A stretch of 64,000 bases of DNA, from contig JACQCF010000010.1 in NCBI GenBank assembly GCA_016201795.1, positions 79,095-143,094 of the forward strand, written 5' to 3'. Of this stretch, positions 2 to 29,800 are shown one piece after another. Numbering within the stretch: position 1 is the first letter of the stretch; each line of letters opens with the position of its first letter. The position numbers and the translations under genes are program-made. The notes beneath the pieces are model-generated. The model was not told the origin of the DNA and searched no databases. It was given only the letters and a program-made list of their open reading frames with translations. Source of the DNA: Candidatus Omnitrophota bacterium (GTDB lineage Bacteria > Omnitrophota > Gorgyraeia > Zapsychrales > Fredricksoniimonadaceae).

Positions 2-2977
2 GGTTTCGATACCACCAGCAATGTCGCCAACGATACGATCAGCCGGTTTAGTTTTTATTACACCGAGCGGCTTAAAACCATTAAGTTTATCAATACCCAG
101 GCTTATGATAATTTTCGTGAGGCGCTGCAAAATCTTATTACGTATCCTACTTCCTTTTATTGCCAGGCCCCGGGGAATGAAAGTTCAGCAAATTGCCAGA
201 ATACGCCGCCGTATGGCCTGAGTTTCAGTTCCTATTGTACACAAGCAAAAACAGATGCGACCATGCCAAAGCTGGGGCCTGTCTGCAATCCCAAATGCGC
301 CGGAAGATCACCTCCTCTGCCTCAAACCGAACCAACTGGATATACTTTTATTGACCCTGCACAAGCCTGGAATGACGCCAATCAGCATTGTTCAGAGCTT
401 TGCAGGACGGACTCTTCGGCACAGTGTCCTAAAAATGCGGCTAATGCCAGCCATCCTTACTATAATCTGCTTTATGACCCTTTTTTGGAGCTTGATTATA
501 AATCCGATGATCCCGCTTCATTCCGCGGCCTTTTAGGTTATGATGACGAGAGTGGAGACCCCACCACGTCTGCCCAAATCCAAAAGACTTTTAGCAAGAA
601 TAAGTCGGTGGGAGTTGTTTATCCCATGCTCTGGGACATGAATGGTTTGCCTGCGGGCAATGATCTGACAACCGCCTTTGGCATCCCTGGTTCCTCGGGT
701 GCTTTATTGACGGACAGCCTTTCCAAGGATCCGGTCAATGGCTTGCAGCTTAACTACCGGCCTGCGGATTCGGATCTTGCCACCGCCTGTACTAATGAAG
801 ATAATGTTAAATATCCTGTTGAAACCGGCATTTGGTGGAAGTCGGGAGCTGACCGCTATTGCTCTGGACCAGCTGGCTTAAGGCCTTATCCTCCGTTAGC
901 GGATGGAGCCGAACCGTATAATTATTGGCCTTATAGTTCATGTCCTTATATGTACAACAGCGCTGGCCAAAAGATCTCTTGTACTCAGAGTACGCAGAAG
1001 TCTCTTTGGGTGCAAGACCGCTTGGATACCATGGTCTATGGTTTAAATAGTTTTTTAAAATTTAACCAGTATTTGCAGAAGATTCCTGAAAAGACATTGG
1101 CCTCGTCGGTGGACACCTGGTATCCGCAAGCAGCTGCCTGGATCGCGCCGCAATGTAAAACTCCAACCGGTGGTCAAAGCTGTGCCGCTGACATCACCAA
1201 TCATCCAGGATGTAGTGCGGTCCAGTATATGATTACTAACAACAACTATGATAGCAGTTACTTAACCTGCAGCCCTAATCACGACGGATATTTGATCCAA
1301 TACATGAATGACCTTTACAATTGGAGAAACCAGCTTGACAATTGGTTGGGGGAGAGCCCTGACCCAACAAAACCCGACCCAACAAAATTTACACAATTCG
1401 GGGACTCTTCCACTGATTTATGCTCAGGCACTATCACTGATGTCATCACATGTTTAAACAGGTATCAAAATATACAGCCCTCTTTTGATACCTGCTGGCA
1501 GAATTTTCCACCAACCACCACCGATGCCGGCGGCAATACCGTTTATCCTGATTTTACCAATACCACCAGCCCGGATTATAACAAGGCTTGCGCCGATCTT
1601 CTCAACGACTATTCAACACAGCAATCATACTTTAGCGGCGTTACCTTTAACCCTGATCCTGCGCTTCCCGCAGGCTTTACGTATAATCGAGACCAGGCCA
1701 CCTATGAGGCATTTCAAAAATGGGTAGAGACGTACACTACTTTTATGGACACCCTTTCTTCCAGGGGGGATGTTTTATCAAGTTTAAAGGACGAGGTAGG
1801 TCACACCAGGGACTTATTTGATGAGGGCTACAAGGATTTTAGTAATTTCCTTGGGTCAGGGGGCCCGGCGGATGATCTGATGCAGGCCAGGCTTGATTCT
1901 CTGGACGATCTCATTAACCGCCTGCCGCCTTTTGTCATCTATGGCTGGAAGGACAAGGGCGGACGCATTGTGGATAACACCATTTCCCACCCGTGGCATT
2001 TGTTGCGGGTGGAAATGAAGTTGCCTCCCAAGAAACCGTGGGTTCATATCTATGAAGACATTTGTCTGGGAGATTTAGTCAGTAGCTTGTATGGAGACAT
2101 CGTCGATGTTTGTAATTACTATGATTTTACTGATGGGGGGACTAAGGATGATCCGCGAGAGGTCTTCTCAAGAGTCACCCGCTGGGACCAGCCGGTGGCC
2201 GGCAATATAACCAAATTTGCCAACAAAATCCCCATCTGGCGGTTTAGATACAATAACCCCAGAGCTGTGGGCGGCGGCGACCCCGCATTAATAAAATCCA
2301 AATGCGTGGGGGAGGTAGCCGAGGATCCTAACCGAGCAGCCTCACCGACATTAGATCCAAACTTTTTAGGCATCGGGTTAAGCGCAGGCACATTTAGTCT
2401 TTTAACTGGAACGCAGCCGGTGGATGACGGTAATGTTGACCCTGACACAAAGCTACCGAGTAGTACTCCTGCGATCGATCCTCTTTTAAGCGCGTCGGAA
2501 CAGAATTCTTATTACGACGCATTTATGATTGATTTTGACCCCCGAGGAAAAATTCCATCTCTTACCAGTAAAGGGTATACACTTAAAGGCGCTGCATGTG
2601 CGGCTGATCCTGATACTCATTGCGCTAACGGAGATTGGGACGTCTGCTGCCCCGCGACCTATTCAGAGTTTCAGTATCGTCCGGCGGGCTGGTGCGCCAC
2701 AACTAATAGAGTGATATGCGCCAAGAGGGCGAGAGTTAAATACATGAAAGACGTACAGGGCAAAGTCCAGGGATGTTTTGATGTGGTGGATCCTTTATTA
2801 AACCAGGGTGTGAAAGCAAGCGCCGGGGCGGGTTACGGAGTGCCAAACAAGCCCCATCATGACTGGCATGAGCAGCTTTATTTAAAAAATTCTCCCGACC
2901 CGAGTAAATTTACTCCTAAGTGTCCATCAGGATCACCTAGTGACGGGAGCACAACCTATGGTGACTGCACATTTTAA
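2..2977 (+). CDS. 5'-partial large Cys/Trp/Tyr/Asn/Pro-rich secreted protein, function unknown (adjacent to Tad-like pilus genes)
   Basis: Frame 2 is open from window position 2 with no stop until TAA 2975-2977, so the listed ATG 263 is internal and the gene continues upstream of the window. Cys-rich, acidic, Pro/Asn/Tyr-rich composition typical of extracellular proteins. No recognisable catalytic motif. Confidence 0.6.
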   Translation, partial: GFDTTSNVANDTISRFSFYYTERLKTIKFINTQAYDNFREALQNLITYPTSFYCQAPGNESSANCQNTPPYGLSFSSYCTQAKTDATMPKLGPVCNPKCAGRSPPLPQTEPTGYTFIDPAQAWNDANQHCSELCRTDSSAQCPKNAANASHPYYNLLYDPFLELDYKSDDPASFRGLLGYDDESGDPTTSAQIQKTFSKNKSVGVVYPMLWDMNGLPAGNDLTTAFGIPGSSGALLTDSLSKDPVNGLQLNYRPADSDLATACTNEDNVKYPVETGIWWKSGADRYCSGPAGLRPYPPLADGAEPYNYWPYSSCPYMYNSAGQKISCTQSTQKSLWVQDRLDTMVYGLNSFLKFNQYLQKIPEKTLASSVDTWYPQAAAWIAPQCKTPTGGQSCAADITNHPGCSAVQYMITNNNYDSSYLTCSPNHDGYLIQYMNDLYNWRNQLDNWLGESPDPTKPDPTKFTQFGDSSTDLCSGTITDVITCLNRYQNIQPSFDTCWQNFPPTTTDAGGNTVYPDFTNTTSPDYNKACADLLNDYSTQQSYFSGVTFNPDPALPAGFTYNRDQATYEAFQKWVETYTTFMDTLSSRGDVLSSLKDEVGHTRDLFDEGYKDFSNFLGSGGPADDLMQARLDSLDDLINRLPPFVIYGWKDKGGRIVDNTISHPWHLLRVEMKLPPKKPWVHIYEDICLGDLVSSLYGDIVDVCNYYDFTDGGTKDDPREVFSRVTRWDQPVAGNITKFANKIPIWRFRYNNPRAVGGGDPALIKSKCVGEVAEDPNRAASPTLDPNFLGIGLSAGTFSLLTGTQPVDDGNVDPDTKLPSSTPAIDPLLSASEQNSYYDAFMIDFDPRGKIPSLTSKGYTLKGAACAADPDTHCANGDWDVCCPATYSEFQYRPAGWCATTNRVICAKRARVKYMKDVQGKVQGCFDVVDPLLNQGVKASAGAGYGVPNKPHHDWHEQLYLKNSPDPSKFTPKCPSGSPSDGSTTYGDCTF

Positions 2978-3446
2978 ACACAGTAATTCTCGTGTCATTG
3001 CGAGGAGTGAAACGACGAAGCAATCTTTTTCTATGGACAAAGAGATTGCTTCGTCGCCTTCGGCTCCTCGCAATGACAGGCGTGGAACTGTTCGCAATGA
3101 CACAAGAGGAGCCTCTGTCATTGAATACATCGTTTTGACAATTATTGTTTTGTCATCATTGTATGTCATGTACAATACGATCAGCAGGGGCATTTTCGGC
3201 AAGCATAAGGTGGCGGGAGATGCGTTTGCCTTCGGTCGTCAGTACGATGCCAGGCGCACCACCACCTGCCGTCAGGACTTTACTTATAGCCAGAACGGCA
3301 CTCCCATCAACGGGGTTTTTTACGACGAGGACTGTTATCAGACGCGTCTGATGCGGCCTTTAGTGAATGGCGGATGTACTCAGGGGGATTTTGCCTGTGA
3401 GGATGTGATTAAAAATTCTTGTATCAGTGATTATTGTAATCAATAA
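2940..3446 (+). CDS. TadE/TadG-like (Flp-type) pseudopilin; start uncertain (ATG 2940 overlaps upstream gene; alternative ATG 3033 lies inside the palindromic element)
   Basis: Translation contains RGASVIEYIVLTIIVLSSL, matching the Flp/TadE N-terminal processing/anchor motif (G-x-x-x-x-E-Y/F followed by a hydrophobic helix). Small Cys-containing C-terminal region. Confidence 0.5.
   Translation: MTGAQPMVTAHFKHSNSRVIARSETTKQSFSMDKEIASSPSAPRNDRRGTVRNDTRGASVIEYIVLTIIVLSSLYVMYNTISRGIFGKHKVAGDAFAFGRQYDARRTTTCRQDFTYSQNGTPINGVFYDEDCYQTRLMRPLVNGGCTQGDFACEDVIKNSCISDYCNQ
2994..3077. repeat. MITE/RPE-like compound palindromic element, copy A (3' of large secreted-protein gene, overlapping 5' leader of TadE-like gene)
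   Basis: GTCATTGCGAGG...CGACGAAGCAATCT...AGATTGCTTCGTCG...CCTCGCAATGAC: 12-bp outer and 14-bp inner inverted repeats. Shares core GTCATTGCGA/GAAGCAATCT/AGATTGCTTC/TCGCAATGAC with three other copies. Confidence 0.8.
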
Positions 3447-3457
3447 AACGGGGCTTT

Positions 3458-4315
3458 ATGATTGTACTTATCTTTTTTTTGATTTTCGTCTCTGTGGGGA
3501 TTTTAGTCTACACCCTCTGGCCGGTGGTGGCGACAAAAGCTCAGGCCATCAATGAAGGGCAGGCGCAGAAGATGGCCTTAAGGTCTGATCTTTACCTGCT
3601 GGAGGATGATCTGCAGAAGACCTATACCCTGGCGCTTTTGGCTCCGCTGGTTTTTGGCGTGGGGGCCTTTATTCTTTTTCCTTCCACCCTGCGTCTGGCG
3701 GGGCTCGTGGTCGGCGTGGTGTTAGGGATTGTTTTGCCGCGGCTGTATGTGAATGCCCTTATTGCCAAAAGAAAGTTGAAGTTTAATGACCAGCTCATTG
3801 ACGCGCTCATGATCATGTCCAGCTCTTTTCGCGGGGGGCTTAGTCTGGTGCAGTCTATTGAGGCGGTCATCGATGAAATGCCCAATCCCATCAAAAGAGA
3901 GTTTGGGGTCGTGCTCGGCGAAAATAAAATGGGGGTGGTGTTCGATGAGAGTCTCAACCGGCTCGCCAAGCGCATGCCTTCGGTGGCGCTCCAGCAGATG
4001 ATCACGGCCATTTTGCTGGCCCGCGAAACCGGCGGTAATTTGCCGGTGATCTTTTCCCGGATCATCAACACCATGCGCGAACGCAAAAAAATAGAACAGA
4101 GTTTAAAGATGCTGACCGTTCAGGGGAAAATTCAGGCGGTGGTCATGACCGGCCTTCCCATTCTTTTTGTCATGGGGGTTTCGGCGTCGAATCCGAGGTT
4201 TTTTGATATTATGTTTCGTATCCCCCAGGGCCAGCAGATGCTGATGGTCTGCGCGGTTCTGTGGATGGTGGGAGCGTTTTTTATATGGCAAATCAGCAAG
4301 TTTAAGGATTTTTAA
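3458..4315 (+). CDS. TadB-like type II secretion system F-domain membrane protein
   Basis: 285-aa polytopic membrane protein, N-terminal TM then a cytoplasmic domain then C-terminal TMs. Sits adjacent to a paralogous 301-aa gene, the typical tadB/tadC pair. Start is preceded by a GGGG Shine-Dalgarno-like stretch. Confidence 0.6.
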   Translation: MIVLIFFLIFVSVGILVYTLWPVVATKAQAINEGQAQKMALRSDLYLLEDDLQKTYTLALLAPLVFGVGAFILFPSTLRLAGLVVGVVLGIVLPRLYVNALIAKRKLKFNDQLIDALMIMSSSFRGGLSLVQSIEAVIDEMPNPIKREFGVVLGENKMGVVFDESLNRLAKRMPSVALQQMITAILLARETGGNLPVIFSRIINTMRERKKIEQSLKMLTVQGKIQAVVMTGLPILFVMGVSASNPRFFDIMFRIPQGQQMLMVCAVLWMVGAFFIWQISKFKDF

Positions 4316-4335
4316 TTATGTCATTGCGAAATGGT

Positions 4336-4429
4336 GTCATTGCGAAGAAGCGAAGCGACTGAAGCAATCTTTTGAGAATCTAATAGATTGCTTCGCTCAC
4401 TGCGTTCGCTCGCAATGACACGAAATCCG
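4336..4429. repeat. MITE/RPE-like compound palindromic element, copy B (intergenic tadB-like/tadC-like)
   Basis: Same core sequence. An extra partial left arm GTCATTGCGAA sits at 4320-4330. Confidence 0.8.
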
Positions 4430-4443
4430 TTTCGGAGAATAAT

Positions 4444-5349
4444 ATGCTCATCTTACCTTTGCTTTTAGTTTTTCTCTCCGTCTTTGCGCTGATCTTAGGA
4501 TTTACGCCTTTATCCATCCAGCCGAAGTTAAAATTGGATTTACCCGTGGCCGGCGGCGAGGGTTTTTCGGCGGGGGCGCCTGCTAAAAAACGGCCTCTGG
4601 ACTTTTTGTTTGGCGGGATACGCAAAATTGCGTTTTTTAACAAACCGTTCACCAACTCCGCTTTGGGCCAGAGGATTTTCAGAGACCTGATGTTAAGCCA
4701 GGTGAGACTTTCCGTTGAGGAATTCTTTTTAATCAAGCAGGCGCTGGCCCTGGGGCTGGTGTGGGTGGCCCTGAAATTCTATCCGGATAAAAATTTTATG
4801 GCTTTTGGTATTCTTATGAGCATGGCCGGCGGCTACTTGATTCCGGAGATTTGGCTGCACGCTAAGGTCCGTAAAATCAAAGCGGCGCTTTTAAAAGATC
4901 TGCCCGACACCGTGGATCTTTTGGGGCTTTGCGTCAATGCCGGATTGGATTTTATGATGGCGCTCAAATACGTGGTGGAAAAGTCCCCCCCGACGGTCAT
5001 TACCGAAGAATTGAAGCTGATGATGCAGGAAATTAACGTGGGCAAGCTGCGGCGGGATGCCCTGCGCGATTTGAGCCGCAAATACGAAATGCCGGATTTA
5101 TCCACTTTTACGCGCACCCTCATTCAGGCCGACCGCATGGGGACCTCGGTCTCGGAAGCGCTCAATATCCTTTCCGAAGATATGCGCGAGACGCGTTTTC
5201 GCCGCGGAGAAACCATGGCGCTCAAAGCTCCGCTGAAAATGCTGGTTCCTTTGCTGTTCTGCATCTTCCCGGTGGTAGCCCTTCTGGTGGCCGGGCCGGT
5301 ATTTTTGGATTTCTTCCACAATAATCCTTTGCGTAATTTAGGCCGGTAA
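4444..5349 (+). CDS. TadC-like type II secretion system F-domain membrane protein
   Basis: 301-aa paralogue of the upstream gene with the same topology. GGAG Shine-Dalgarno 8 nt upstream of ATG 4444. Confidence 0.6.
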   Translation: MLILPLLLVFLSVFALILGFTPLSIQPKLKLDLPVAGGEGFSAGAPAKKRPLDFLFGGIRKIAFFNKPFTNSALGQRIFRDLMLSQVRLSVEEFFLIKQALALGLVWVALKFYPDKNFMAFGILMSMAGGYLIPEIWLHAKVRKIKAALLKDLPDTVDLLGLCVNAGLDFMMALKYVVEKSPPTVITEELKLMMQEINVGKLRRDALRDLSRKYEMPDLSTFTRTLIQADRMGTSVSEALNILSEDMRETRFRRGETMALKAPLKMLVPLLFCIFPVVALLVAGPVFLDFFHNNPLRNLGR

Positions 5350-5354
5350 ACTCT
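5324..5354. repeat. 31-bp direct repeat, copy 1 (3' end of tadC-like coding sequence)
   Basis: ATCCTTTGCGTAATTTAGGCCGGTAAACTCT. Identical except for one base to 6646-6676. Confidence 0.85.
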
Positions 5355-5379
5355 TTTTGCGAAACCACAAAAACAATTC

Positions 5380-5407
5380 TTGACAATTTAAAGTAGTACT
5401 TTAAAAT
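5380..5407 (+). promoter_or_regulatory. sigma70-like promoter TTGACA-16-TAAAAT for AAA+ ATPase gene; predicted leaderless or near-leaderless transcript
   Basis: TTGACA at 5380-5385, TAAAAT at 5402-5407. The ATG lies at 5415, only 7 nt downstream of the -10, with no Shine-Dalgarno. Confidence 0.5.
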
Positions 5408-5414
5408 AGCAAAT

Positions 5415-6635
5415 ATGTACACCACGCGTTTGTTAGAAAAAACTTTGAAAGAAGCCGTGCAGTCTTTTCCGGTGGTTTTTATCGGCGGCCCGCGAAGAAG
5501 CGGCAAGACCACATTATCGCAAACATTCCTGAAAGGATACCGTTATGTCCTTTTGGACGAAATGGATGTGCGTTCGTTAGCCATAGAGGATCCGCGCGGC
5601 TTTCTGGAGAAATATCCGCCCCCGGTCATTATTGATGAAATCCAAAATGCGCCGCATCTTTTATCGCATATCAAAGCCCGTATGGAGGTCAATAAGAAGC
5701 CGGGGCAGTGGATTTTGACCGGTTCTCAACAATGGGCCTTGATGAAAGGTATCAGTGAAACATTGGCCGGGCGCATCGCTATTTTACACTTGTATCCTTT
5801 TTCCATAGAGGAAATTCAAAAGACCCGACGGGTTCATTTAAATGAGGCGGGCGGGTTTGTTAAGAGTTTGATGCAGGCTAAAAAAATACCGGACAAGATG
5901 ATCCCTCTTGGGCGCTGGATTCTACAAGGCGGGTACCCAGAAGTGGTCCTTAATAAGAAAGCGTCTCGCAAACTTTGGTTTTCCAGTTATTTGCAGACTT
6001 ATGTGGATAGGGATGTCCGCGGGCTTATCAAACAATCCAATCTTCATGATTTTGAGCGGTTTGTAAAACTTTTAGCGGCACGCACGGCGCAGGAGCTTAA
6101 TTGTTCCACGCTTTCGCGCGATATCGGCGTTTCCGTTCCTACCATAAAGTCTTGGATTACGCTTTTGGAAACGAGTGGACTCATCTTTCTTTTGATGCCT
6201 TATCATAGAAATTTCGGAAAAAGGATCATCAAAGCGCCCAAGTGTTATTTTATGGATACGGGGCTGGCGGCGTATCTCGTCGGCCTACAGGATGAGGAGC
6301 ACACCCTGCAAGGGCCTATGGCGGGCGCACTCTTCGAGACGGCCTGTGTTGCTCAATTTTATAAACGGTTTACCGCCTTGGTGGACCCTTGTTCACTTTA
6401 CTACTATCGCAGTATGGATGGGTTGGAAGTGGACCTTTTGATTGAAACCGGCAAAACGATTTATCCCATTGAAATGAAATTATCCTCGACCATTGATTAT
6501 GGACGAACAGCGTCTTTGATGAAGTGGCTGGAAATTTCTAAAATCAAAGATGGCCGGGGACTGATCATTTCCGCCTCCAGGGAATTGGGGTCGGTGGGTA
6601 AAAACGTAGCAAACTGCCACTATTCGCTGATTTAA
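5415..6635 (+). CDS. AAA+ ATPase, DUF4143/COG1373 family (ATP-binding protein)
   Basis: Walker A GGPRRSGKTTL and Walker B VIIDEIQ, with a C-terminal DUF4143-like region. Consensus promoter immediately upstream. Confidence 0.8.
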   Translation: MYTTRLLEKTLKEAVQSFPVVFIGGPRRSGKTTLSQTFLKGYRYVLLDEMDVRSLAIEDPRGFLEKYPPPVIIDEIQNAPHLLSHIKARMEVNKKPGQWILTGSQQWALMKGISETLAGRIAILHLYPFSIEEIQKTRRVHLNEAGGFVKSLMQAKKIPDKMIPLGRWILQGGYPEVVLNKKASRKLWFSSYLQTYVDRDVRGLIKQSNLHDFERFVKLLAARTAQELNCSTLSRDIGVSVPTIKSWITLLETSGLIFLLMPYHRNFGKRIIKAPKCYFMDTGLAAYLVGLQDEEHTLQGPMAGALFETACVAQFYKRFTALVDPCSLYYYRSMDGLEVDLLIETGKTIYPIEMKLSSTIDYGRTASLMKWLEISKIKDGRGLIISASRELGSVGKNVANCHYSLI

Positions 6636-6645
6636 ACCCGCCGCC

Positions 6646-6676
6646 ATCCTTTGCGTAATTTGGGCCGGTAAACTCT
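6646..6676. repeat. 31-bp direct repeat, copy 2 (downstream of AAA+ ATPase gene)
   Basis: ATCCTTTGCGTAATTTGGGCCGGTAAACTCT. With copy 1 it brackets the promoter plus ATPase gene (about 1.3 kb). Confidence 0.85.
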
Positions 6677-6682
6677 AACTAA

Positions 6683-6708
6683 CCCCGAACCTCGCAGGTT
6701 CGGAAAAT
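6683..6708. repeat. 26-bp stem-loop element, copy 1 (CCCCGAACCTCGCAGGTTCGGAAAAT)
   Basis: 7-bp stem CCGAACC/GGTTCGG with a 5-nt loop. Lies immediately after the stop codon (6710-6712) of the minus-strand regulator gene, between convergent genes. Confidence 0.7.
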
Positions 6709-6709
6709 T

Positions 6710-7681
6710 TTAAACCTCACTGATCACATCAAACCCTTTAAAGCTGCCGACAATGGCCAGCCCAACAATTTGCCCCCGGCAGAGGTTTTTGCGTTTGATT
6801 TGAGCGGCTGTTTCATTGAGCGTCGCGCCGGAGCCCACCGCATCATCAATAAGCAGGATATTGTTAAAAGGCGTTTTATCTTCCACGATCAGGGTTTGTT
6901 TGGCGTTATCGATACGGTCCTGGAGTTTATTAAGTGTCTTTTGGGCAATAAGGACATCCGTCTTAGCCTTAACAATGGACAGCAGCCGCTGGCGGATATG
7001 GAGCCGCTTTTTTAGCTCATTGATCAGCTGCACTTCGCGTTTGACCGTCGGTGGGATAAAGCCCGCCGCGTCAATATCAAACTGACTGATAATGGTTTTG
7101 ATGGGATGGTCGATGATTTCCACCAGCGCCGCAATCTGTTTTTTGTTCTGGCTGGATTTAGCCAGCAGCACCAGTTGTCCCAGTCTAGTTTTGCCAAAAC
7201 GTTCTATAGCATAAAAATCCAAATAGAAAAGCCTGTCCAATGCGATCTCTTTGAACGTGGAGCGCATTTTAGGCATGCCATCGATGAGTCCCTCTTTTTG
7301 ATATTGGCCATATTGGGCCATGGTTAACGCGTATTCTTTGGCTGTTTTGGCAGCGTCTAAATTTTGCTTGGCACACCAAGCCCTAAAACCGTTGACGCCG
7401 GTTTCTTGCTGTCCTAAAGGTGAAACATAATAAAAGTTTTTTTCAATCACATCCCTCGTTTGTTCATCAAGCAGGAAGATCTGCGGCTGTTCTTTGGGAT
7501 CAGTCAGGGTGTAAAAAACTTTTGGTGGGCGGCCCAGTTTTTGAATTAAGCCTTTTTCACAAAGAACTTTAAGTTGTTTGAAAACAGCCCGGGGGCCTAT
7601 GTTCAAAAGATTATAAAGATCCTTTGGACTGGTCTGGGGGTTTTGAGCAATATATTCTAAGATTTTTTGAGATGTATTCAT
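6710..7681 (-). CDS. PurR-like regulator: N-terminal winged-HTH fused to a phosphoribosyltransferase (PRPP-binding) domain
   Basis: N-terminal HTH-like segment (ILEYIAQNPQTSPKDLYNLLNIGPRAVFKQLKVLCEKGLI). C-terminal PRTase PRPP-binding motif LLIDDAVGSGATL. Perfect palindrome at its start codon and a consensus sigma70-like promoter upstream. Confidence 0.6.
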   Translation of the reverse strand: MNTSQKILEYIAQNPQTSPKDLYNLLNIGPRAVFKQLKVLCEKGLIQKLGRPPKVFYTLTDPKEQPQIFLLDEQTRDVIEKNFYYVSPLGQQETGVNGFRAWCAKQNLDAAKTAKEYALTMAQYGQYQKEGLIDGMPKMRSTFKEIALDRLFYLDFYAIERFGKTRLGQLVLLAKSSQNKKQIAALVEIIDHPIKTIISQFDIDAAGFIPPTVKREVQLINELKKRLHIRQRLLSIVKAKTDVLIAQKTLNKLQDRIDNAKQTLIVEDKTPFNNILLIDDAVGSGATLNETAAQIKRKNLCRGQIVGLAIVGSFKGFDVISEV

Positions 7682-7711
7682 AGTTCATAGTTCATAGTGA
7701 ACTATGAACTA
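7677..7711. promoter_or_regulatory. Perfect 14-bp inverted repeat (TAGTTCATAGTTCA-TAG-TGAACTATGAACTA), candidate operator overlapping the start codon of the PurR-like gene
   Basis: 7681-7694 is the exact reverse complement of 7698-7711. Extended by TTCA at 7677-7680, giving TTCATAG x3. Spans the ATG at 7679-7681 and lies just downstream of the -10. Confidence 0.6.
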
Positions 7712-7712
7712 T

Positions 7713-7741
7713 AATATACCAAGATAAATTGAACTTGTCAA
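7713..7741 (-). promoter_or_regulatory. sigma70 consensus-like promoter (TTGACA-17-TATATT) for PurR-like gene
   Basis: On the minus strand: TTGACA (7736-7741), a 17-nt spacer, then TATATT (7713-7718). Sits directly upstream of the operator palindrome and start codon 7681. Confidence 0.6.
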
Positions 7742-7743
7742 GT

Positions 7744-7769
7744 CCCCGAACCTCGCAGGTTCGGAAAAT
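7744..7769. repeat. 26-bp stem-loop element, copy 2 (identical sequence)
   Basis: Lies immediately after the stop codon (7771-7773) of the minus-strand toxin gene, in the same position relative to the stop as copy 1. Confidence 0.7.
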
Positions 7770-7770
7770 C

Positions 7771-8028
7771 TTAAGGATTTTGTAATAAATCGTGGGTGCC
7801 GATTTTTCTTAAGAAAGCCGTATCGCCAATTTTTTGGTAGGTGATGCGGTAATTGATGTTGACGCGCAACTCCCAAACATCTTTATAACCTGTCATCTTT
7901 TTATGCTCAAGGGAAGGATGGAAGGGATTGTCTCTAAGAAGGGCTAGAGATTTTTTAGCTTGGGTTTGTACTTCACTGGGTAATTTTTGATATAGTTTGA
8001 GAAATTGTTTGGATGTTTCAATGATCAA
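7771..8028 (-). CDS. RelE/ParE-family type II toxin (mRNA interferase)
   Basis: 85-aa protein with RelE/ParE-like signature regions (SKQFLKLYQKLP...NPFHPSL...WELRVNINYRITYQ...IGTHD). TTG start overlaps the upstream antitoxin gene by 11 nt. Confidence 0.65.
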   Translation of the reverse strand: MIIETSKQFLKLYQKLPSEVQTQAKKSLALLRDNPFHPSLEHKKMTGYKDVWELRVNINYRITYQKIGDTAFLRKIGTHDLLQNP

Positions 8029-8311
8029 AATCGTAGTCCTTTTTACCGTCTAAAATATCAAATAACTCCTCAAGATTTTTAGTTTTTGTGACCCGTCCGG
8101 CTTTAATGTCTTCCTCCGCTTCTTTTTCGCCTTTTTGCCATTCTGGCGTGAAGAAATAAGCTTGATCTTTGGGAATGGAGACATGAGGTTTTAAATAAAT
8201 GCCGTTGTGAACAATTTGCACATCCAAATAATCATTTTTGTGTAAATGAAGATTCTTGACCACTTCTTTTGGAATAGCAATTTGGTAATTAGCGCCAAGT
8301 TTTCTAAGCAT
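8018..8311 (-). CDS. AbrB/MazE/SpoVT-family antitoxin (start reassigned to ATG 8311; track ORF extends to TTG 8335)
   Basis: N-terminus MLRKLGANYQIAIPKEVVKNL fits the SpoVT/AbrB swapped-hairpin fold motif. AGGAGG lies 9 nt upstream of ATG 8311. The TTG at 8335 overlaps the predicted -10 box, so it is unlikely to be the start. Confidence 0.6.
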   Translation of the reverse strand: MLRKLGANYQIAIPKEVVKNLHLHKNDYLDVQIVHNGIYLKPHVSIPKDQAYFFTPEWQKGEKEAEEDIKAGRVTKTKNLEELFDILDGKKDYDFDH

Positions 8312-8334
8312 GTTGATCATCCTCCTTTGATTCA

Positions 8335-8362
8335 ACTATATCATAAAATATGGAAATGTCAA
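8335..8362 (-). promoter_or_regulatory. Promoter for antitoxin-toxin operon (TTGACA-16-TATAGT on minus strand)
   Basis: Minus-strand TTGACA corresponds to + strand 8357-8362, and TATAGT to + strand 8335-8340. Followed by AAGGAGG and ATG 8311. Confidence 0.5.
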
Positions 8363-8545
8363 ATTCATATTTTAGTATTTTAGTATATTAACAGTATGGC
8401 GATATGCCATAAAGCGCTATGCCTCAAGCGGGATATCCAAAATTTATGATATCTGTCTATATTATAATTTCCATTATGGAAATATATGTATGTAAGTTTC
8501 CAGTCTGGAAATAAGTTGAATATTCATGATTTTCTCCAAATGAAT

Positions 8546-8660
8546 CCCCTCCCCCTGTGTGGGGAGGGTAAGGGAGGGGGCATAAAAGCGATAATCTCCG
8601 TCGATCCCCCTCCCCTAACCCCTCCCACCAAGACCCGCCGTAGGCGGGTCAAGGGAGGGG
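8546..8660. promoter_or_regulatory. GC-rich nested-palindrome island with G-quadruplex-type G-tract (+ strand) and C-tract (G4 on - strand) motifs, in an AT-rich intergenic region upstream of the giant gene
   Basis: GGGGAGGGTAAGGGAGGGGG at 8561-8580, four G-tracts with loops of 1-3 nt. Near-complementary CCCCCTCCCCTAACCCCTCCC at 8605-8625. Hairpin GACCCGCC-GTAG-GCGGGTC at 8631-8649. Outer arms CCCCTCCCCC (8546-8555) and AAGGGAGGGG (8651-8660). Confidence 0.5.
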
Positions 8661-8776
8661 AATAGTGTAGAAAAACGCACCTTTAAAAGAATTTCGAAAA
8701 AATATTCCAACAGCGACGTAACTTATTGAAAATAAACAATATAAATATTTAAAAGTATTTGAGAAAATTTGCTAAC

Positions 8777-8786
8777 TGTATATAAT
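8777..8786 (+). promoter_or_regulatory. Candidate extended -10 promoter (TGTATATAAT) for giant gene
   Basis: TGnTATAAT-like sequence 65 nt upstream of ATG 8851. No good -35. Only a weak ribosome-binding site before the ATG. Confidence 0.3.
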
Positions 8787-8850
8787 GTGTTATACTCTTC
8801 TTATACGACGAGAACTCGTTAAAATTAGAGCTTAACCAAGCTAATTCTTA

Positions 8851-11800
8851 ATGAATAAAAACGAAGAATTCAATCAAAAAACCCCCCAGGACGATGGTGG
8901 TTTTGCTTTTATTCCAGAGAATATAGATAAAAGCAAAAAATCAGATTTCCCCTCGTTGCAGCCTCCAGAAAGCATTTCCCCAGAGCAGGTTACGTCAATT
9001 AAACCGGAAATTCCTTTAGCCGACAAAAGGCCGTTTGTGAGCAATTTCAAACAATGGATCAGGACGGTCGCCATCGTGATTCTGGCGGTGTTTGTGCCGG
9101 ATCAGGTGAGCTGGGCATTTGGCTATAACCCAACGGTGCTGTATAAAAACCTGCCTATTGCCCAGGCGCCGTTGACTGGGGTAGGGGCGATCAATGATCA
9201 CCCCCAACAGGCAAGCGCCCAGGTTGCCGGTTCGGTGGAATACTTGCTCAAGCAGATCCAGGATAAAGACCGGCTGAGGGTACAATTAAATTTGGATAAT
9301 CAGCCGGTCAGTCAATGGTCAATGGTCAATGGTCAAAATATTCTACCATCCACTATTCACCCTAAACCATTAACCGTTGACACCCGCACCACGTTTGATC
9401 AAAACAACATTGCCAAAATTACCCAGTGGCTCTCTGATCCCAATCTCAATGTTCTTAACTGCGGGGTGTATGCCCTGCAGGAAGTGCTGGCCAAGAAAGG
9501 TATCAACCGCTCCCTGGAAGAAATTTCCGTGCTGACGGTCTCCACGGATTTGCTGGCCAATATCATCAAGGTGGGCGAGCCCAAACTCAAGACCACGTTG
9601 TTTGCCATCAGCAAAGTCGGCTCCGCCCTGGGGCTTAATTACCAGGCGCTTAAAGTCGAGGCCAAAGAGGAGCTCAATTTACCCGCGCCTTTTATCGCCC
9701 ATTTAAACAGCGAGCATTTTGTGACGGTCAAAAAGGTCAGCGGGCACAAAGTCTTTATCGATGATCTTGGCCATCCGCAGATTGTTGAGCGCGCCGAGTT
9801 TGAGAAAAATTTAGACGGGTTTGTGTATACAGAAATTCCGTCAAGTGTCATTGCGAGCGAACACAGTGAGCGAAGCAATCTATTAGATTCTCATCAAAAG
9901 ATTGCTTCAGTCGCTACGCTCCTTCGCAATGACACAGCCATACAATACGAAATCGTCCCCGAAGCCATGCAAGCCTTTGTCTGGGGCGACAAGTGGCGCG
10001 ACAGGTCGCAGAACCTGCCGGGGTTGTTTAACGCCGAACAGTTTGCCATTACCCAACTCACCGCAATCGTGGGAGCCTTTTGCCCGGTATGCGGCCTGGC
10101 CATGACCGTTGGTTATCAAGCTGCCAACGGCGCATCCATGGAGCAAATTGGAATGACCATTGGTATCGCCGTGGCGATGATGGCCTTATCAGCAGCGGTC
10201 GGCGCGGCTAGCAACAGCGGCGGGTCTACTACAGATGCCGGAGGGACAACTGGCACTGGAACAACAGGCACCGAGGTCACGGGAACAACAGGCACCGAGG
10301 TCACGGGAACAACAGGTACGGAAGTCACCGCTGGAACAGGCACACCAGTCGGTACAGGAGTTGGCACTGCAACATCTACAACTCCCACCACTTTCGGGGG
10401 CCGGTTTTGGGGCAATTTTACAGGCAACTTTACTAAACCGGTTTTAAGCGTCGGAAATCTTACCATGAGCTTCGTCGGCATGGCCGCCAGCAGATTGGCG
10501 GGGGACATAGCTACGATTTGCGTGCTGGAGGGAGCCTGCGATCAGACCACCGGATTTATTTTAAGCACCGCGCTTTCGATTGGGTTAACCGTTGGGGTCG
10601 CGTCTGTCGCTAATTTCGGGAAAACTGCTCCTGTGGATGCCAGCAAAGATACACTGGCTAATGGCGGCACAGAATTTGACGCTCAGTACGTTCATGATGC
10701 TGTTGCCGGCGGCGCGAGCCCAGACGATGCCACCTTTTGGGCCTGGTTTGATGGAGCATCAGAAAAGCAAGCTATGTTAATTGGGACGGAAGTCGCCAAA
10801 TTTTCAGGAAGTTTCTCAAATTTCGCAACAGCTTTTGCCAAAGGTCTTGCCAAAGGCCTTGTTTTAGGCGCGGTCAAAGGCATTGTGTCATTGGAAGTCA
10901 CTCAGGCCGTCAACAGCGCCATCTGCCCTCATCAAAATAAATGCAGTGAAAGCGATAAAATTTTGTCGCAGACCCTGGGCACGCTTCTGTCTTCCGTGGC
11001 CTCCGATGTGGCGGTTGCCACGGTGAGGTATATCGGCGATAACATTTCTAAGGGAGCAGCCGGTTTCGGCAAAATGCCGGGAACCCAACCAGGAAAAACA
11101 GATGCTTTTATTGCTGCGGAAAATAAAGTCAAAGATATCAGCAATACGCAGGAGTATGAAACTGCAATGGAAAAGGCTGGGGATGATTGGTTCCGTCAAA
11201 GATACGATAAAGCCATTAAAAATGGCGAAGATCTTAGCAAAATAGATTTTGAGGGGGGCGTTCAACAAGCGGAACAACAGTGGAAGGCTTCCACCAATCA
11301 AGACAACTTTTTTAAGGGTGAACTCGGTTACATGGCAAACAATAACGGCAGCGAAGGCGAGTGGCATCCAGCCAACTTCTTTAAATATACGGGGGTGATT
11401 TTAAAAGCCGACCTTCCCTTTATCGCCGGTCAGCTCACCGGCGGGGCCCTGCGCCTGGCCGCGGCCCAGATGGGCATTAAAGCTGACAGCCAATTCTCCC
11501 AAGGTTTTGCCGCAGCCGGTAACCTCCTGAGCAGTGCAGCTATTCAGTATGGGTTTGACAAAACTTTCAGAGAGAGGCCTTTGCTTGACTTTGATAATGG
11601 AATGAAAGGGTTCAGCTCCAGCATCATAGGAGGTATGGTCATGCTGGGCGCTACCCAGGCGGTCATGTCCATGGGATTAATAGCTTTAGAAGGCGCCATC
11701 GTGGGCAAGGCCCCGGGCAGAAATGCTTCGGCCAGACAACTGCGCGATTATGAAAACAATTTGGCCGTATTTCGAACCACGTTTTTGATCGACACCAGTT

Positions 11801-26800: not shown

Positions 26801-29800
26801 TCGCGCTGGTCAGCAAGTTTTCGAACGGGGGCGGAATTTCGCAGATCGAGGTGGCACAGCAGTTGTACGATAAAGGCGTCCTGAAATTTTACCGGCTGAC
26901 GGACAGCAAAGGCAATCCTTACGGCCCGCAAGCCAAACAAGGCCAGGAAATACCTGAATTCGAACCGATCACCATCAACGATGTGCGCGCGTTGTATAAC
27001 TTTGACCGCAAACGCGGACAAGCGTTCGTCATTGATCAGGAAGTTGCAGAGCTTTCGCAATTCAAGGCCCGGAAAGAACAAGAGCTGGAGCTTTTAAATA
27101 AAGGCGTCAATAATTCTAACCTTACTGCGGAAGATAGACGCGTGGCATTGCAGAATGCGATCAATCGATATGCTCGGAATATCGTTCGTTTGGCCAAGGA
27201 AAAAGAAAGCATTGATTTGACTTTGCCGAAATGGGTGATTGGTTCTCAGGCGTCCGACGGGGCGATGACCGCTGAAGAGGTGATTAATGGTGTTGCCGAC
27301 GCTGGTCGATATAAAACCACAATCCAAACACTAAGGCAAAAGTTAGGCCGAGAATTGCTATCCCCATCTCAATCTCCTTCCTTGGCAGGACAAATTAGGG
27401 AAGGTATTAATGGTGCTGTTTATGTGACCTACGCTGATCAATTAAGAACCAAAGACCAAAGATTACAATTATTGATAAACCAAACAGGATTGTTGCCATT
27501 TTATTTGTCTCCTTTGGGGGGGAATATAGCCACGCTAAACAATAACAATCCAAAAGCGATGGCTGCAAGACCCAATTTAATTAATAAGGACACATTCCTT
27601 AGAGCTTCCGCGAAAAATTTACGTCTTGATGAGGTCCAAAATTCATCCATTAGTAGCAATATAACACCGATTGCTGGAGCTGTCAAGGAAGGCGGTATGA
27701 GAGCGCTCGACGGGGCGATGACCTCACAGAATGGCGGGACGGCCACCTCCCGCCGGGATTTCTTGTTGAAGAGGTTCATTCCTGTCGTCGTTGGCGTGGC
27801 TGTTGCGCCGTCTTTATTGGCCCAGCAGACTCAGAAGATTAAATACGCCAATGACAAAAACCATGTCTTTGATTTGCGTACGGCTACAATACTCGATCCT
27901 AAGCAAGAAATTAGCGAAGACCGAATGGGGATTTTCAACAAAGGGAAAGTCGATATTGCCAAAATTTTCTTAGGCCAATGTGTTCTTGTCTTAGCGACCT
28001 TTGAGGGAGATAACCGCGTTGCCATGATGCATCTTGCTTCCGGACGTCTTCTGGATCCAAAAACCGGCAGGAGGGATATTTATGAGTCTTTTGATATAGA
28101 GGATCAAGTACGTAAATTCAAACAGAATTTGCGTGATGCAGGGATCGATTTAGATGATAAAGACCAGAGAAGGAAAGTAACCATTCATACATTCCGCATG
28201 GGCAGCTCTTCCCTTAAACCTAAGTTCTGGCCCACGCTGGATGAGACCCTGACACAGCTTCTCGGCAATTTCGTCAATCACCCGGTCATGCGCGGGTACG
28301 ATGGATTTAAGATGGACTTTAACAGAGTTGATGGGCCGTGGAAAATTAATATTACCGATGTTGCTGATCCAAAGAATGTTTACTATAACTATGAAATTGC
28401 CCCGCGCTCGGGCAAGCTGGTTAAGCAAGACAAGGCCATGACTATCAAACTCGCCGACAGAGCCGTGGTGAGTCATTTGTTGAATTTAGCCCAAACCAAA
28501 CCTATGGATTTTGCCATGGAAGCCAAGAAGGGGCCGGAAGTTCGTGAAATAGCCAAGAGATATTATCCTGTTTTAAGAGACGCCGCGATGTCCGCCAAAA
28601 TCTCCGATTTTGCGGAAAAGGAAACAATAGTAAAGGCTTACCCGGGTGAATTACTTAATCGTTTACATGCCATTACCAAACACCTGGGAAATTCTTTCCC
28701 GAACGACAACGATTGGACGGTGTTTGAATTGATGTTGACGGCGTTAAAGCGTAATTCTCTGATTCAACTGCCATTGAATAAAGTCGCGTTTGTGGGTACT
28801 GATTCCGATGTGTTGCCGAAACTATTTTCTGAGGTTTCACCGCAGTCCAACATCAAGGTCGTGCAGCCGGGTATTTTAAGGAAAGTCTGGGGAGGCCAAG
28901 AACGCTATGTTCATCTTGCCAAAGCCATCCAGCAAGTCGGTTTTGAAGATGAGAATAAGGACATTGATTTTATCTTCAGCACCGGACTATTTAACATGGA
29001 GCTGCAAGAGGCCCAAGGGGACAGGACAGATATGTCTAAACAGGTGATGAACCGTACCAGTCTGCGGCAGTTAGTCGGTCAGGGCACCGCCAATGAACGC
29101 CGCGTTGATATGTGGAAGGCCATCAATGCGCATTTGTCCAAACAGGGAATAGCTGTTATTAATGTTGGACCAATGCGTGACTATAAATTTGAAGCTTTAA
29201 TGAAAGGCGCTGGAGCGCAACCGGAGTGGTTAATAGGAGGCATGTATTTATTTAATAAACAGACAGATCGCGCCATGTTTACACAACGGCCAGAGCAGAA
29301 TGTCGGGTCTTCGACAGAAATGTCTTCCACCACTTTGGGTAAGGATTGGTCGATGGCTTTCCCATGGGTCGATTATGAATTCAAGAAGGCAAAGGATAAG
29401 GCGGAGTTTATTAAGAGCTTCTTTATGGATCGGTTTGGAACCGGTGTTGGTTTGAGCTGGGCGGACGTCAAAGCCTATTTGCAAAAAACAGAACCGGACT
29501 TTGAATCCACCGGCTACGCCGACGGATGGCAGGATCTGGTGGCCATACGTCGGGCGATACAATCGGCCATGGATAGTTTGGATGAAAACCAGTTGATAGA
29601 GCTGTTTACTGCGCCGCCATTCAAAGCACAAATCGCCACAGCGTTTGGCGGCCGGGTCCTATTGCAGAACATGCTTTTATTGTGGAGTTTTGCCCATGGC
29701 ATGAGCACCAAGCAAGACAGAAAAGCCAAAGTCGATGCCTTGCTTAAGACTATATTAGAGAAAGCCGGTGTTTCTAGTGTCGTCCCCGAAAGTATTTATC

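Follow-up and report, generated by a model that had tools for sequence, protein, structure and literature searches.

Four copies of a palindromic element of 88–91 nt, with ends GTGTCATTGCGA...TCGCAATGACAC, were found in a 64,000-nt stretch of Omnitrophota DNA (the window, to which all positions refer), and two of them lie in frame inside a giant gene. The presence of the feature was confirmed. Taken as a whole, the evidence makes it probable that the four copies are recently inserted, non-autonomous hairpin elements, perhaps mobilized by a GIY-YIG nuclease and tolerated in frame where they entered coding sequence.

Each copy is an inverted doublet. Copy 1 (2992–3079, a near-perfect hairpin), copy 3 (9845–9935) and copy 4 (29929–30017) are on the forward strand, and copy 2 (4334–4421) is on the reverse strand, opposite in orientation to copies 3 and 4. 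The preliminary description had listed all four as compound hairpins; all were recovered, but the palindrome extends 2 bases further on each side (GT...AC) and copy 2 stops at 4419/4421, not at 4429. The terminal inverted repeats of the four copies are perfect over 12 nt. Two lone termini were also present. The right terminus TTCGCAATGACAC at 3090–3103 (10-mer at 3092–3101) is located 11 nt 3' of copy 1 and is complementary to the left end of that copy, forming an inverted pair with it. The left terminus GTCATTGCGA at 4320–4329 is located 6 nt 5' of copy 2. A span of less than 7 kb that takes in the T2SSF genes and the beginning of the giant gene holds copies 1 to 3 and both lone termini. Searched on both strands, the 10-mer GTCATTGCGA had 10 exact matches in the 64 kb against an expectation of about 0.12 (2 x 64000 / 4^10). 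With one mismatch, 11 matches were counted against a shuffle mean of 4.3, and 11 was reached in none of 100 shuffles. An nhmmer search over the window found no decayed copies beyond the four and the lone termini; on inspection, two candidates (17774 and 40443) and a GTCATCCTGAG head (21818) were attributed to chance.

All eight arms in the window read YGTC-ATTGC...GCAAT-CT. A test for an oriented motif resolved each arm into a head, YGTCAT, and a palindromic stem followed directly by a C. As the preliminary description had supposed, all four copies are hairpins: every copy gave a single long hairpin, with energies of −41 to −57 kcal/mol (z = −6.5 to −10.9). Window arms folded singly as single-stranded DNA gave −1.5 to −5.1 kcal/mol with z near 0, no better than shuffled sequences. 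The stable structure in the window copies is the hairpin between the two arms, as opposed to a single-arm fold. No Rfam family matched at gathering thresholds, and permissive E-values returned generic hairpins only, such as miRNA precursors. Searched in the literature, the 10-mer gave primer noise only and longer ATTGCGAG-type strings gave no paper; the paper on Ssn nucleases (PMC11893778) was reached through the sister string GTCATTCCCGC.

Copy 1 is divergent, with 76–82% identity to the other copies, and has a fold of −56.8 kcal/mol (z −10.9). It follows a 904-aa gene, whose stop is at 2977, and precedes a small conserved gene. Both it and copy 2 had been described as intergenic, which holds for copy 2 and is not clearly so for copy 1, since copy 1 is in frame with an ORF at 2940–3446. 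Its loop contains the sole canonical in-frame start 5' of the conserved part of the small gene, an ATG at 3033. It is possible that copy 1 supplies the start codon of this gene, and copy 1 may be partly coding. Copy 2 lies between two T2SSF genes (3458–4315 and 4444–5349). When reverse-complemented, it has 93% identity to copy 3, loop included, and 88% to copy 4. No transposase gene adjoining the copies was seen among the window genes.

The giant ORF starts with the ATG at 8851 on the forward strand and runs past the end of the window at 64000 (>18,380 codons); the reading frame is open from 8845 to the window end, over 18,385 codons. Its product carries a Peptidase_C39 domain at residues 204–325 near the N-terminus, and its homologues come from Candidatus Omnitrophota MAGs. 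The preliminary description had proposed that two copies lie within this ORF without breaking the frame and add about 29 codons each, and this proved correct. Copy 3 occupies codons 333–361 (peptide VIASEHSERSNLLDSHQKIASVATLLRND), in the variable linker that joins the Peptidase_C39 domain to the conserved motif VPxxxQAFVWGDKWRD. Copy 4 occupies codons 7027–7055 (peptide VSLRANEMSEAISYPNKKIASVASLLRND), within a proline-rich region; homologues begin to align some 36 residues further downstream, to a domain that resembles, by eye, a putative methyltransferase. The right arms of both encode KIASVA(S/T)LLRND and the loops differ by 2 nt, in line with the preliminary description. A six-frame check showed that copies 3 and 4 each have one stop-free frame, which is the frame used. 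The common right-arm peptide and the common orientation of the two copies are explained largely by this single open frame of six. Core lengths of 87 and 85 nt are not both multiples of three under one boundary definition, which we counted against the mobile-element explanation. An AlphaFold model of the first 700 residues had a mean pLDDT of 38, too poor to place the copy 3 insert.

All nine homologues of the giant protein that could be aligned (8 from databases at 37–55% identity and 1 from a metagenome) are without the copy 3 insert, and orthologue homology runs on at both sides. The 29-residue peptide without the palindrome was not found in any of the nine. This comparison had been proposed as a check of the insertion, and its outcome bears the insertion out. 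A metagenome scan yielded two relatives, both distant, and searches for closer relatives did not yield an empty site at nucleotide resolution. A syntenic Omnitrophica locus (L131), whose T2SSF proteins are 61% and 64% identical to those of the window, is without copies 1 to 3. Where the window carries copies 1 and 2, this locus shows spacers 1, 23 and 14 nt long; the 14-nt one matches the copy 2 site and is free of the element. For copy 4, no orthologue across the site was found by word-indexed search, and a full HMMER scan matched the downstream domain only (query residues 666–950). Because no orthologue covers this region, DNA identity is the one line of evidence from which we infer that copy 4 is an insertion like copy 3. 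To either side of it the frame runs on unbroken for thousands of codons.

In a second Omnitrophota contig (L130), the orthologous giant gene carries two single arms in frame. One, from a sister subfamily (GTCATTCTGAGCCCGAAGGGCGAAGAATCTC), is at the same linker as copy 3, and the other is near residue 130. The same linker was struck independently in two orthologous giant genes.

Further copies of the doublet are numerous in other genomes. The same doublet was present in at least 120 genome contigs from many phyla, with hosts among Alpha-, Gamma- and Deltaproteobacteria, Bacteroidota, Cyanobacteria, Chloroflexota, Nitrospirota, Planctomycetota, Patescibacteria, Rickettsiales and Coxiellaceae; the Rickettsiales carrying the family include Ca. 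Tisiphia. At least 120 IMG/VR contigs also carried it, a count that does not in itself establish carriage by bona fide phages. In BLAST searches of cultured phage and plasmid collections, one phage record matched in part and no plasmid record matched. The doublet form prevails, with 134 heads paired versus 17 unpaired. No direct repeats that could represent a target-site duplication flanked 136 copies, and these flanks showed a palindromic Y(−1)/R(+1) preference only, with no defined insertion site. In minimum-energy folds of arms from other genomes, ATTGC paired with GCAAT in 222 of 269. The arm interior there is most often GCGNAGC, with N free, and sister heads covary (ATTCT/AGAAT, ATCCT/AGGAT, ATTCCCGC/GCGGGAAT). 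In-frame inserts were found in UvrA (L048), with Pfam domains on either side, and in GuaA (L041), within the GATase domain. The view that in-frame colonization is uncommon outside Rickettsia was therefore too strong, given these two inserts and a review in which in-frame MITE fusions are not unusual (PMC10969869).

The association with GIY-YIG genes was examined starting from the gene side, as loci selected for the element yielded few. Arms of this type lie within about 60–350 nt of a 96-aa GIY-YIG (PF01541) gene in every context examined; in L252 and L253 they lie within about 20 nt, and the arm heads of L252 are one- or two-base variants. Four unrelated contigs (L126, L249, L252 and L253) have an arm-gene-arm arrangement around the GIY-YIG gene, in which the forward arm is 13–37 nt 5' of the start and the inverted arm overlaps the stop or is at most 8 nt away. 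This fixed layout suggests that the doublets are gene-less derivatives of such an arm-flanked GIY-YIG element. Neither the 64-kb window nor the two other Omnitrophota contigs, L130 and L131, contained a GIY-YIG gene. A scan of element-selected loci found only one each in L103 and L249 and a weak match in L157. Among 120 loci selected for the doublet, one had a GIY-YIG gene, which fits action in trans and gives it no statistical support.

Ssn GIY-YIG nucleases bind and cut single-stranded DNA beside CGTCATTCCCGCGMAVGCGGGAATCYRG-type hairpins flanking their own genes (PMC11893778). The window arms share with these NTS/SRM repeats the YGTCAT head, the palindromic stem and the C right after the stem; both families are spread widely across phyla, and in other genomes arms of the window type lie around small single-domain GIY-YIG genes. 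Stem and unit differ: the window stem, ATTGC...GCAAT, has an interior that is long and pairs weakly, outside the SRM pattern, and the window unit, an inverted doublet, folds into a single long hairpin. The nucleases flanked by NTS/SRM are of cd10448 type, of which the 96-aa PF01541 proteins here are candidate members. NTS are seldom intragenic (2%), and in-frame coding copies were not described (PMC11893778). The published SRM pattern, HGTCWYN(0-2)YYVSBRHN(0-5)WNVSBRGN(0-2)RNCYNB, found the NTS control and had no match in the window, arms included. The pattern under-counts repeats of this kind.

Rickettsia palindromic elements (RPEs) resemble the window element in layout and behaviour. Both are short palindromic repeats located between and inside genes and read through in frame, with a peptide added at tolerated sites (PMC10969869), and copy 3 is likewise palindromic, in frame in a coding gene and missing from nine homologues. 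RPEs are about 150 bp long and form ten families in Rickettsia, whereas the window element is 88–91 nt, occurs in Omnitrophota and belongs to a family of many phyla. The mobilizing enzyme of RPEs is not established; Rickettsia is among the genomes with more than 300 SRM hairpins (PMC11893778). The analogy to RPEs and MITEs drawn in the preliminary description is supported by the in-frame palindrome, the likeness at the DNA level and the occurrence in both orientations and in coding and non-coding DNA. It does not extend to a classical MITE: the lack of a target-site duplication makes the element MITE-like rather than a MITE proper.

The possibility that the element is a classical MITE or REPIN, mobilized by a DDE or a RAYT tyrosine transposase, with proximity to GIY-YIG genes coincidental (for example through shared intergenic hot spots), is quite improbable. 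Classical MITEs (Correia, ERIC, Nezha and others) are likewise small and non-coding, with terminal inverted repeats, many copies and occasional in-frame intragenic fusions, and the window holds four copies of 88–91 nt with perfect 12-nt ends. REPINs likewise consist of two inverted, short, imperfect palindromes with a short spacer, and a repeat-flanked single-copy gene is their presumed mobilizer. The inverted doublet with its perfect termini would fit either, and doublets form arrays, so that any gene inside an array is flanked. However, classical MITEs have target-site duplications and an origin in DDE-transposase insertion sequences, neither of which was seen here, and the absence of direct repeats around the 136 copies led us to reject a classical MITE with such duplications. 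The putative partner that shares the arms, seen in other genomes only, encodes a GIY-YIG nuclease and no known transposase. REPs have a head of GTAG type and are served by Y1 (IS200/IS605-like) RAYT transposases, mostly within one species lineage; the head here is GTCA, the linked gene, in other genomes, is a GIY-YIG nuclease, and the scanned genes of the window included no Y1 transposase. The head sequence led us to reject a GTAG-headed REP/RAYT element. The arm-gene-arm spacing, fixed in four unrelated contigs, is not the loose proximity that coincidence implies, and no transposase gene stands beside the window copies.

That the host keeps the copies for use is unlikely, yet less so. The hairpins could serve as single-strand nuclease sites limiting recombination or transformation at surface-protein loci, or as RNA hairpins affecting mRNA stability or translation, and their place at a Tad-like pilus and giant surface-protein locus would then not be accidental. 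In Neisseria, NTS have been proposed to limit recombination and transformation, and they cluster beside membrane and host-interaction genes with an effect on transformation (PMC11893778). The grouping of three of the four copies and both half-sites in 7 kb and the great stability of the hairpins point the same way. Against this, orthologous loci work without the copies, their position is not conserved across relatives, the coding copies occupy the sole stop-free frame as a passive filter predicts, and Rfam offered generic hairpins below threshold only. It is very improbable that the 29 residues represent a motif conserved in the giant protein, or that metagenome assembly created the copies as joins at repeats. 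The shared KIASVA(S/T)LLRND would fit a motif, but the likeness is at the nucleotide level (88–93%) and includes the reverse-oriented intergenic copy, and the peptide is missing in all homologues; the motif was rejected as largely refuted. The window is probably metagenome-assembled and repeats can yield chimeric joins, but orthologue homology spans copy 3 and the frame stays open for thousands of codons around copy 4.

A mobile hairpin element remains the probable explanation. Against it count the missing target-site duplication and defined insertion site, the lack of a GIY-YIG gene in the window, L130 and L131, the mismatch with the published SRM pattern, the single-arm folds no better than shuffles and the near absence from cultured phage and plasmid records at BLAST sensitivity. 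Its unit would be an inverted doublet of two arms of about 35 nt, (Y)GTC-ATTGC-...-GCAAT-C(Y), with a short variable loop, and its insertion into this Omnitrophota genome would be fairly recent. How it moves we infer as follows. The doublets may be the gene-less form of a larger element in which two inverted arms surround the 96-aa GIY-YIG gene, whose product resembles the Ssn single-strand nucleases that cut beside NTS/SRM hairpins. Acting in trans from elsewhere in the genome, this nuclease would nick single-stranded DNA beside each arm, and the doublet would be copied or moved. Copies in the giant gene would persist only through the single open frame and orientation, a frame-keeping length and linkers that tolerate 29 residues, and would then be transcribed and translated within the giant protein, as for RPEs.

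A broader proposal is offered tentatively, with somewhat less than even confidence: that a mobile element flanked by hairpins, with an Ssn-like GIY-YIG single-strand nuclease as its sole gene, exists in a gene-less form as the GTCATTGCGAG doublets. Such an element would be a class of transposable element without a described mechanism, present in more than 10 bacterial phyla and missed by the SRM motif. It would be a general agent of RPE-style in-frame colonization, reaching housekeeping enzymes such as UvrA and GuaA and entering time and again the giant surface proteins of Omnitrophota, in which long linkers would act as sinks.

In-frame palindromic colonization has been treated mainly as a peculiarity of Rickettsia, and its engine is not known. 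Here one element family colonizes genes in frame in a deeply different phylum, as well as core enzymes of other bacteria, and the fixed arm-gene-arm layout makes the GIY-YIG nuclease a concrete candidate for the mobilizing enzyme. Giant genes may grow and diversify partly through accumulated inserts of this kind.

The sequence GTCATTGCGA or its reverse complement had 10 exact matches in the 64-kb window, against about 0.12 expected by chance, and 11 matches when up to one mismatch was allowed, a number that 0 of 100 shuffles reached. These matches form four inverted doublets, located at 2992-3079 (copy 1), 4334-4421 (copy 2), 9845-9935 (copy 3) and 29929-30017 (copy 4), and lone termini adjoin copy 1 (3092-3101) and copy 2 (4320-4329). 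The four doublets noticed in the preliminary description were recovered, with the end of copy 2 corrected from 4429 to 4421. Running a profile of all four doublets over the window yielded zero additional decayed copies. All four copies have perfect 12-nt termini, GTGTCATTGCGA...TCGCAATGACAC, and an interior of two arms of about 35 nt with loop-side ends GAAGCAATCT and AGATTGCTTC, separated by a variable loop of 8-17 nt. A single long hairpin was predicted for each (-41 to -57 kcal/mol, z -6.5 to -10.9), in agreement with the hairpin initially proposed. Copies 2, 3 and 4 constitute one subfamily whose two arms are unlike each other, copy 2 being opposite in orientation to copies 3 and 4. The reverse complement of copy 2 has 93% identity to copy 3, from which it differs at three substituted positions and by one 3-nt indel in the loop, and 88% to copy 4; copy 1 was more symmetrical and shared 76-82% identity with copies 2-4. 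The copies are inserted palindromic repeats, and the high identity of scattered copies in both orientations points to a recent spread at the DNA level.

The giant ORF is open from 8845 to the window end (18,385 codons, start ATG at 8851), encodes a Peptidase_C39 domain at residues 204-325 and has homologues in Candidatus Omnitrophota MAGs. As originally described, copies 3 and 4 lie in frame within it, 29 codons each (codons 333-361 and 7027-7055), and have the right-arm peptide KIASVA(S/T)LLRND in common. That copy 3 is an insertion rather than a conserved protein motif was upheld by nine homologues that align on either side of it, eight from the database (37-55% identity) and one from a metagenome; the 29 residues are absent in 9 of 9. 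Copy 3 sits in a linker of variable length that joins the C39 domain to the invariant motif QAFVWGDKWRD. The copy 4 site was covered by none of the giant-protein homologues found, and on its 88% nucleotide identity to other copies copy 4 is probably an insertion as well. Its surroundings are proline-rich, and homologue alignments begin only about 36 residues further on, at a downstream domain that by eye looks methyltransferase-like. A structure model of the giant protein was uninformative.

Each of these two copies contains stops in five of six frames, and the sole open frame is the one used by the giant gene, to which intragenic copies are limited. The common orientation, the shared peptide and the seemingly compensating loop lengths are therefore the expected residue of a survival filter and do not speak for design. 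The core lengths of copies 1-4 were 84, 84, 87 and 85 nt, and no single boundary rule makes both intragenic cores (87 and 85 nt) multiples of three. The giant ORF occupies 86% of the window but contains just copies 3 and 4 and no lone terminus, a shortage that fits the loss of most intragenic insertions.

Within the giant ORF, the stretch at about 30100-31000 (residues 666-950 of query 28129-31728) was the sole mid-protein query part with detectable relatives (58 matches, best E 4e-15); its VLDWGAGSG motif suggests a methyltransferase-type domain, and it had no Pfam match. Tandem repeats were present at 10254-10325 (24 nt x 3, encoding TGTEVTGT repeats) and 9318-9340 (GTCAATG x 3).

Of the two copies first taken as intergenic, copy 2 was so placed, whereas copy 1 is in frame with ORF 2940-3446. 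The last 115 residues of this ORF, whose product had no Pfam match, are homologous to an equivalently placed 115-aa protein of L131, a contig of an Omnitrophica MAG (32% identity, E 9e-17). Upstream of the conserved hydrophobic segment ASVIEYIVL, the one canonical start codon in frame is an ATG in the copy 1 loop (3033), so copy 1 may now give the small protein its start and N-terminal leader. L131 has the gene order of the window (large protein, 115-aa protein, two T2SSF proteins with 61% and 64% identity, giant gene), with spacers of 1, 23 and 14 nt at the positions of window copies 1 and 2.

The window region 5350-8840, with an ATPase gene, a winged-helix/phosphoribosyltransferase-like gene and a MazE-like gene, is missing in the syntenic L131 locus. 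The DUF4143/AAA_14 ATPase gene (5415-6635) is flanked by 31-nt direct repeats, 97% identical (5324-5354, the 3' end of the T2SSF gene, and 6646-6676), and looks like an inserted gene cassette. Other 31-nt direct repeats, with hairpin CCCCGAACCTCGCAGGTTCGG, lie at 6683-6713 and 7744-7774 on either side of the winged-helix gene (6710-7681, minus strand), at whose 5' end a perfect palindrome, TAGTTCATAGTTCATAGTGAACTATGAACTATA (7680-7712), may be an operator. Upstream of the giant gene, 8546-8660 contains two G/C-rich palindromes of the CCCCTCCCC...GGGGAGGG type; the PPPGGEGQGG at the equivalent post-C39 linker of homologue P0005 might descend from a repeat of this kind.

To find the family in other genomes, the pattern GTCATTGCGA-N50-75-TCGCAATGAC was searched in a one-genome-per-species collection (at least 120 contigs) and in IMG/VR (at least 120 matches). 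Among the matches listed, doublet contigs were labelled Bradyrhizobium, sphingomonads, Mucilaginibacter, Pedobacter, Flavobacterium, Nostoc, Microcoleus, Rivularia, Nitrospirota, Chloroflexota, Planctomycetota, Patescibacteria, Deltaproteobacteria, Coxiellaceae and Rickettsiales including Ca. Tisiphia. A window copy searched at BLAST sensitivity was almost absent from cultured phage and plasmid records. Heads, the conserved 5' ends of arms, formed 134 doublets against 17 unpaired among the matches listed, most of the latter with a mutated partner. Three of about 131 listed copies were clearly within real genes, in frame: in UvrA (L048; ...GPTS[VIASKAKQSHSTGSANNGIATSPLAPRND]NNGER..., with Pfam domains on either side), in the GATase domain of GuaA (L041), where the domain match runs across the insert, and in a Bacteroidales protein (L106). 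The supposed rarity of such insertions outside Rickettsia is, in view of these cases, overstated. In the giant-gene orthologue of L130, another Omnitrophota contig, a single in-frame arm of a sister subfamily, GTCATTCTGAGCCCGAAGGGCGAAGAATCTC (3895-3925, VILSPKGEESQ), occupies the same post-C39 linker as copy 3, so this linker was hit independently in two lineages. A second such arm, GTCATCCTGAGCGAAGCGAAGGATCTC (3389-3415, HPERSEGSH), lies near residue 130.

About 90 nt from the doublet through which it was found, contig L103 carries a 96-aa GIY-YIG gene, whose product has more than 8,000 homologues in the protein collection. The sole match of the 96-aa proteins was PF01541, with no PDB relative. 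Arms of this type occurred near the gene in each of the contigs retrieved by way of it, and in four unrelated contigs (L126, L249, L252, L253) the gene is bracketed exactly by a forward and an inverted arm. In L126, 18 nt separate the forward arm from the ATG, and GAGATTAC... of the inverted arm overlaps with the TGA; L253 is arranged likewise with TGAGATTGCC, and L249 has TAGATTGCC. In L252, with variant heads GTCTCTGCGAG / CTCGCAAAGAC, the inverted arm begins 8 nt after the stop and the arm interiors are mutually reverse complementary except for two bases. Gene deletion from such a unit would leave a doublet. No GIY-YIG gene was found in the 64-kb window, L130 or L131.

The units of L252 (1480-1936) and L253 (1340-1860) lie within branched-chain amino-acid ABC transporter operons, between genes, and those of L126 and L249 are surrounded by dense doublet arrays. 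Two 96-aa GIY-YIG proteins, P0093 (MAG labelled Methylacidiphilales; XisH/XisI genes as neighbours) and P0175 (MAG labelled Ignavibacteriales), were 84% and 72% identical to a cyanobacterial one, which suggests recent cross-phylum transfer or, for P0093, mis-binning.

Across sister subfamilies, head and partner sequences covary (ATTGC/GCAAT, ATTCT/AGAAT, ATCCT/AGGAT, ATTCCCGC/GCGGGAAT). For 269 ATTGC-type arms, ATTGC paired with GCAAT in 222 minimum-energy folds, and the commonest interior was GCGNAGC with the middle base free. Covariation and fold pairing indicate that each arm is a unit by itself. A literature search with the string GTCATTCCCGC pointed to the Neisseria NTS, CGTCATTCCCGCGMAVGCGGGAATCYRG, and the wider class of Ssn-related motifs (SRM) (PMC11893778). 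Ssn are small GIY-YIG proteins that bind and cut single-stranded DNA beside NTS/SRM hairpins; cleavage depends on the three bases that precede the stem, and the C that follows it matters for binding (PMC11893778). These hairpins flank the nuclease gene, a layout likened by the authors to an insertion sequence (PMC11893778). The window arms similarly read YGTC, stem, then C, but the published SRM pattern had no match in them and single window arms gave no stable ssDNA hairpin; structurally the arms represent a variant of NTS/SRM hairpins.

With the corrections given above, the preliminary interpretation is supported. The elements are MITE-like but not classical MITEs, as no target-site duplication was seen at the flanks of copies among the matches listed, which show a palindromic Y/R preference. 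REP/RAYT elements differ in the GTAG head, absent here, and that identity failed too; the inverted doublet arrangement is similar to that of REPINs. The likeness to Rickettsia palindromic elements stood, as functionally the same phenomenon in another phylum (PMC10969869).

In the likeliest mechanism, which is inferred, a GIY-YIG-type nuclease encoded elsewhere in the window's genome would recognise each arm in single-stranded DNA and nick a few bases outside it. An inverted doublet would then be nicked at both outer borders, on opposite strands, making copying or transfer possible, and selection would purge intragenic copies save in-frame, stop-free ones in tolerant linkers. With a chance we put a little short of even, the doublets are derivatives of a GIY-YIG-driven class of mobile elements that is behind in-frame protein colonisation across many phyla.
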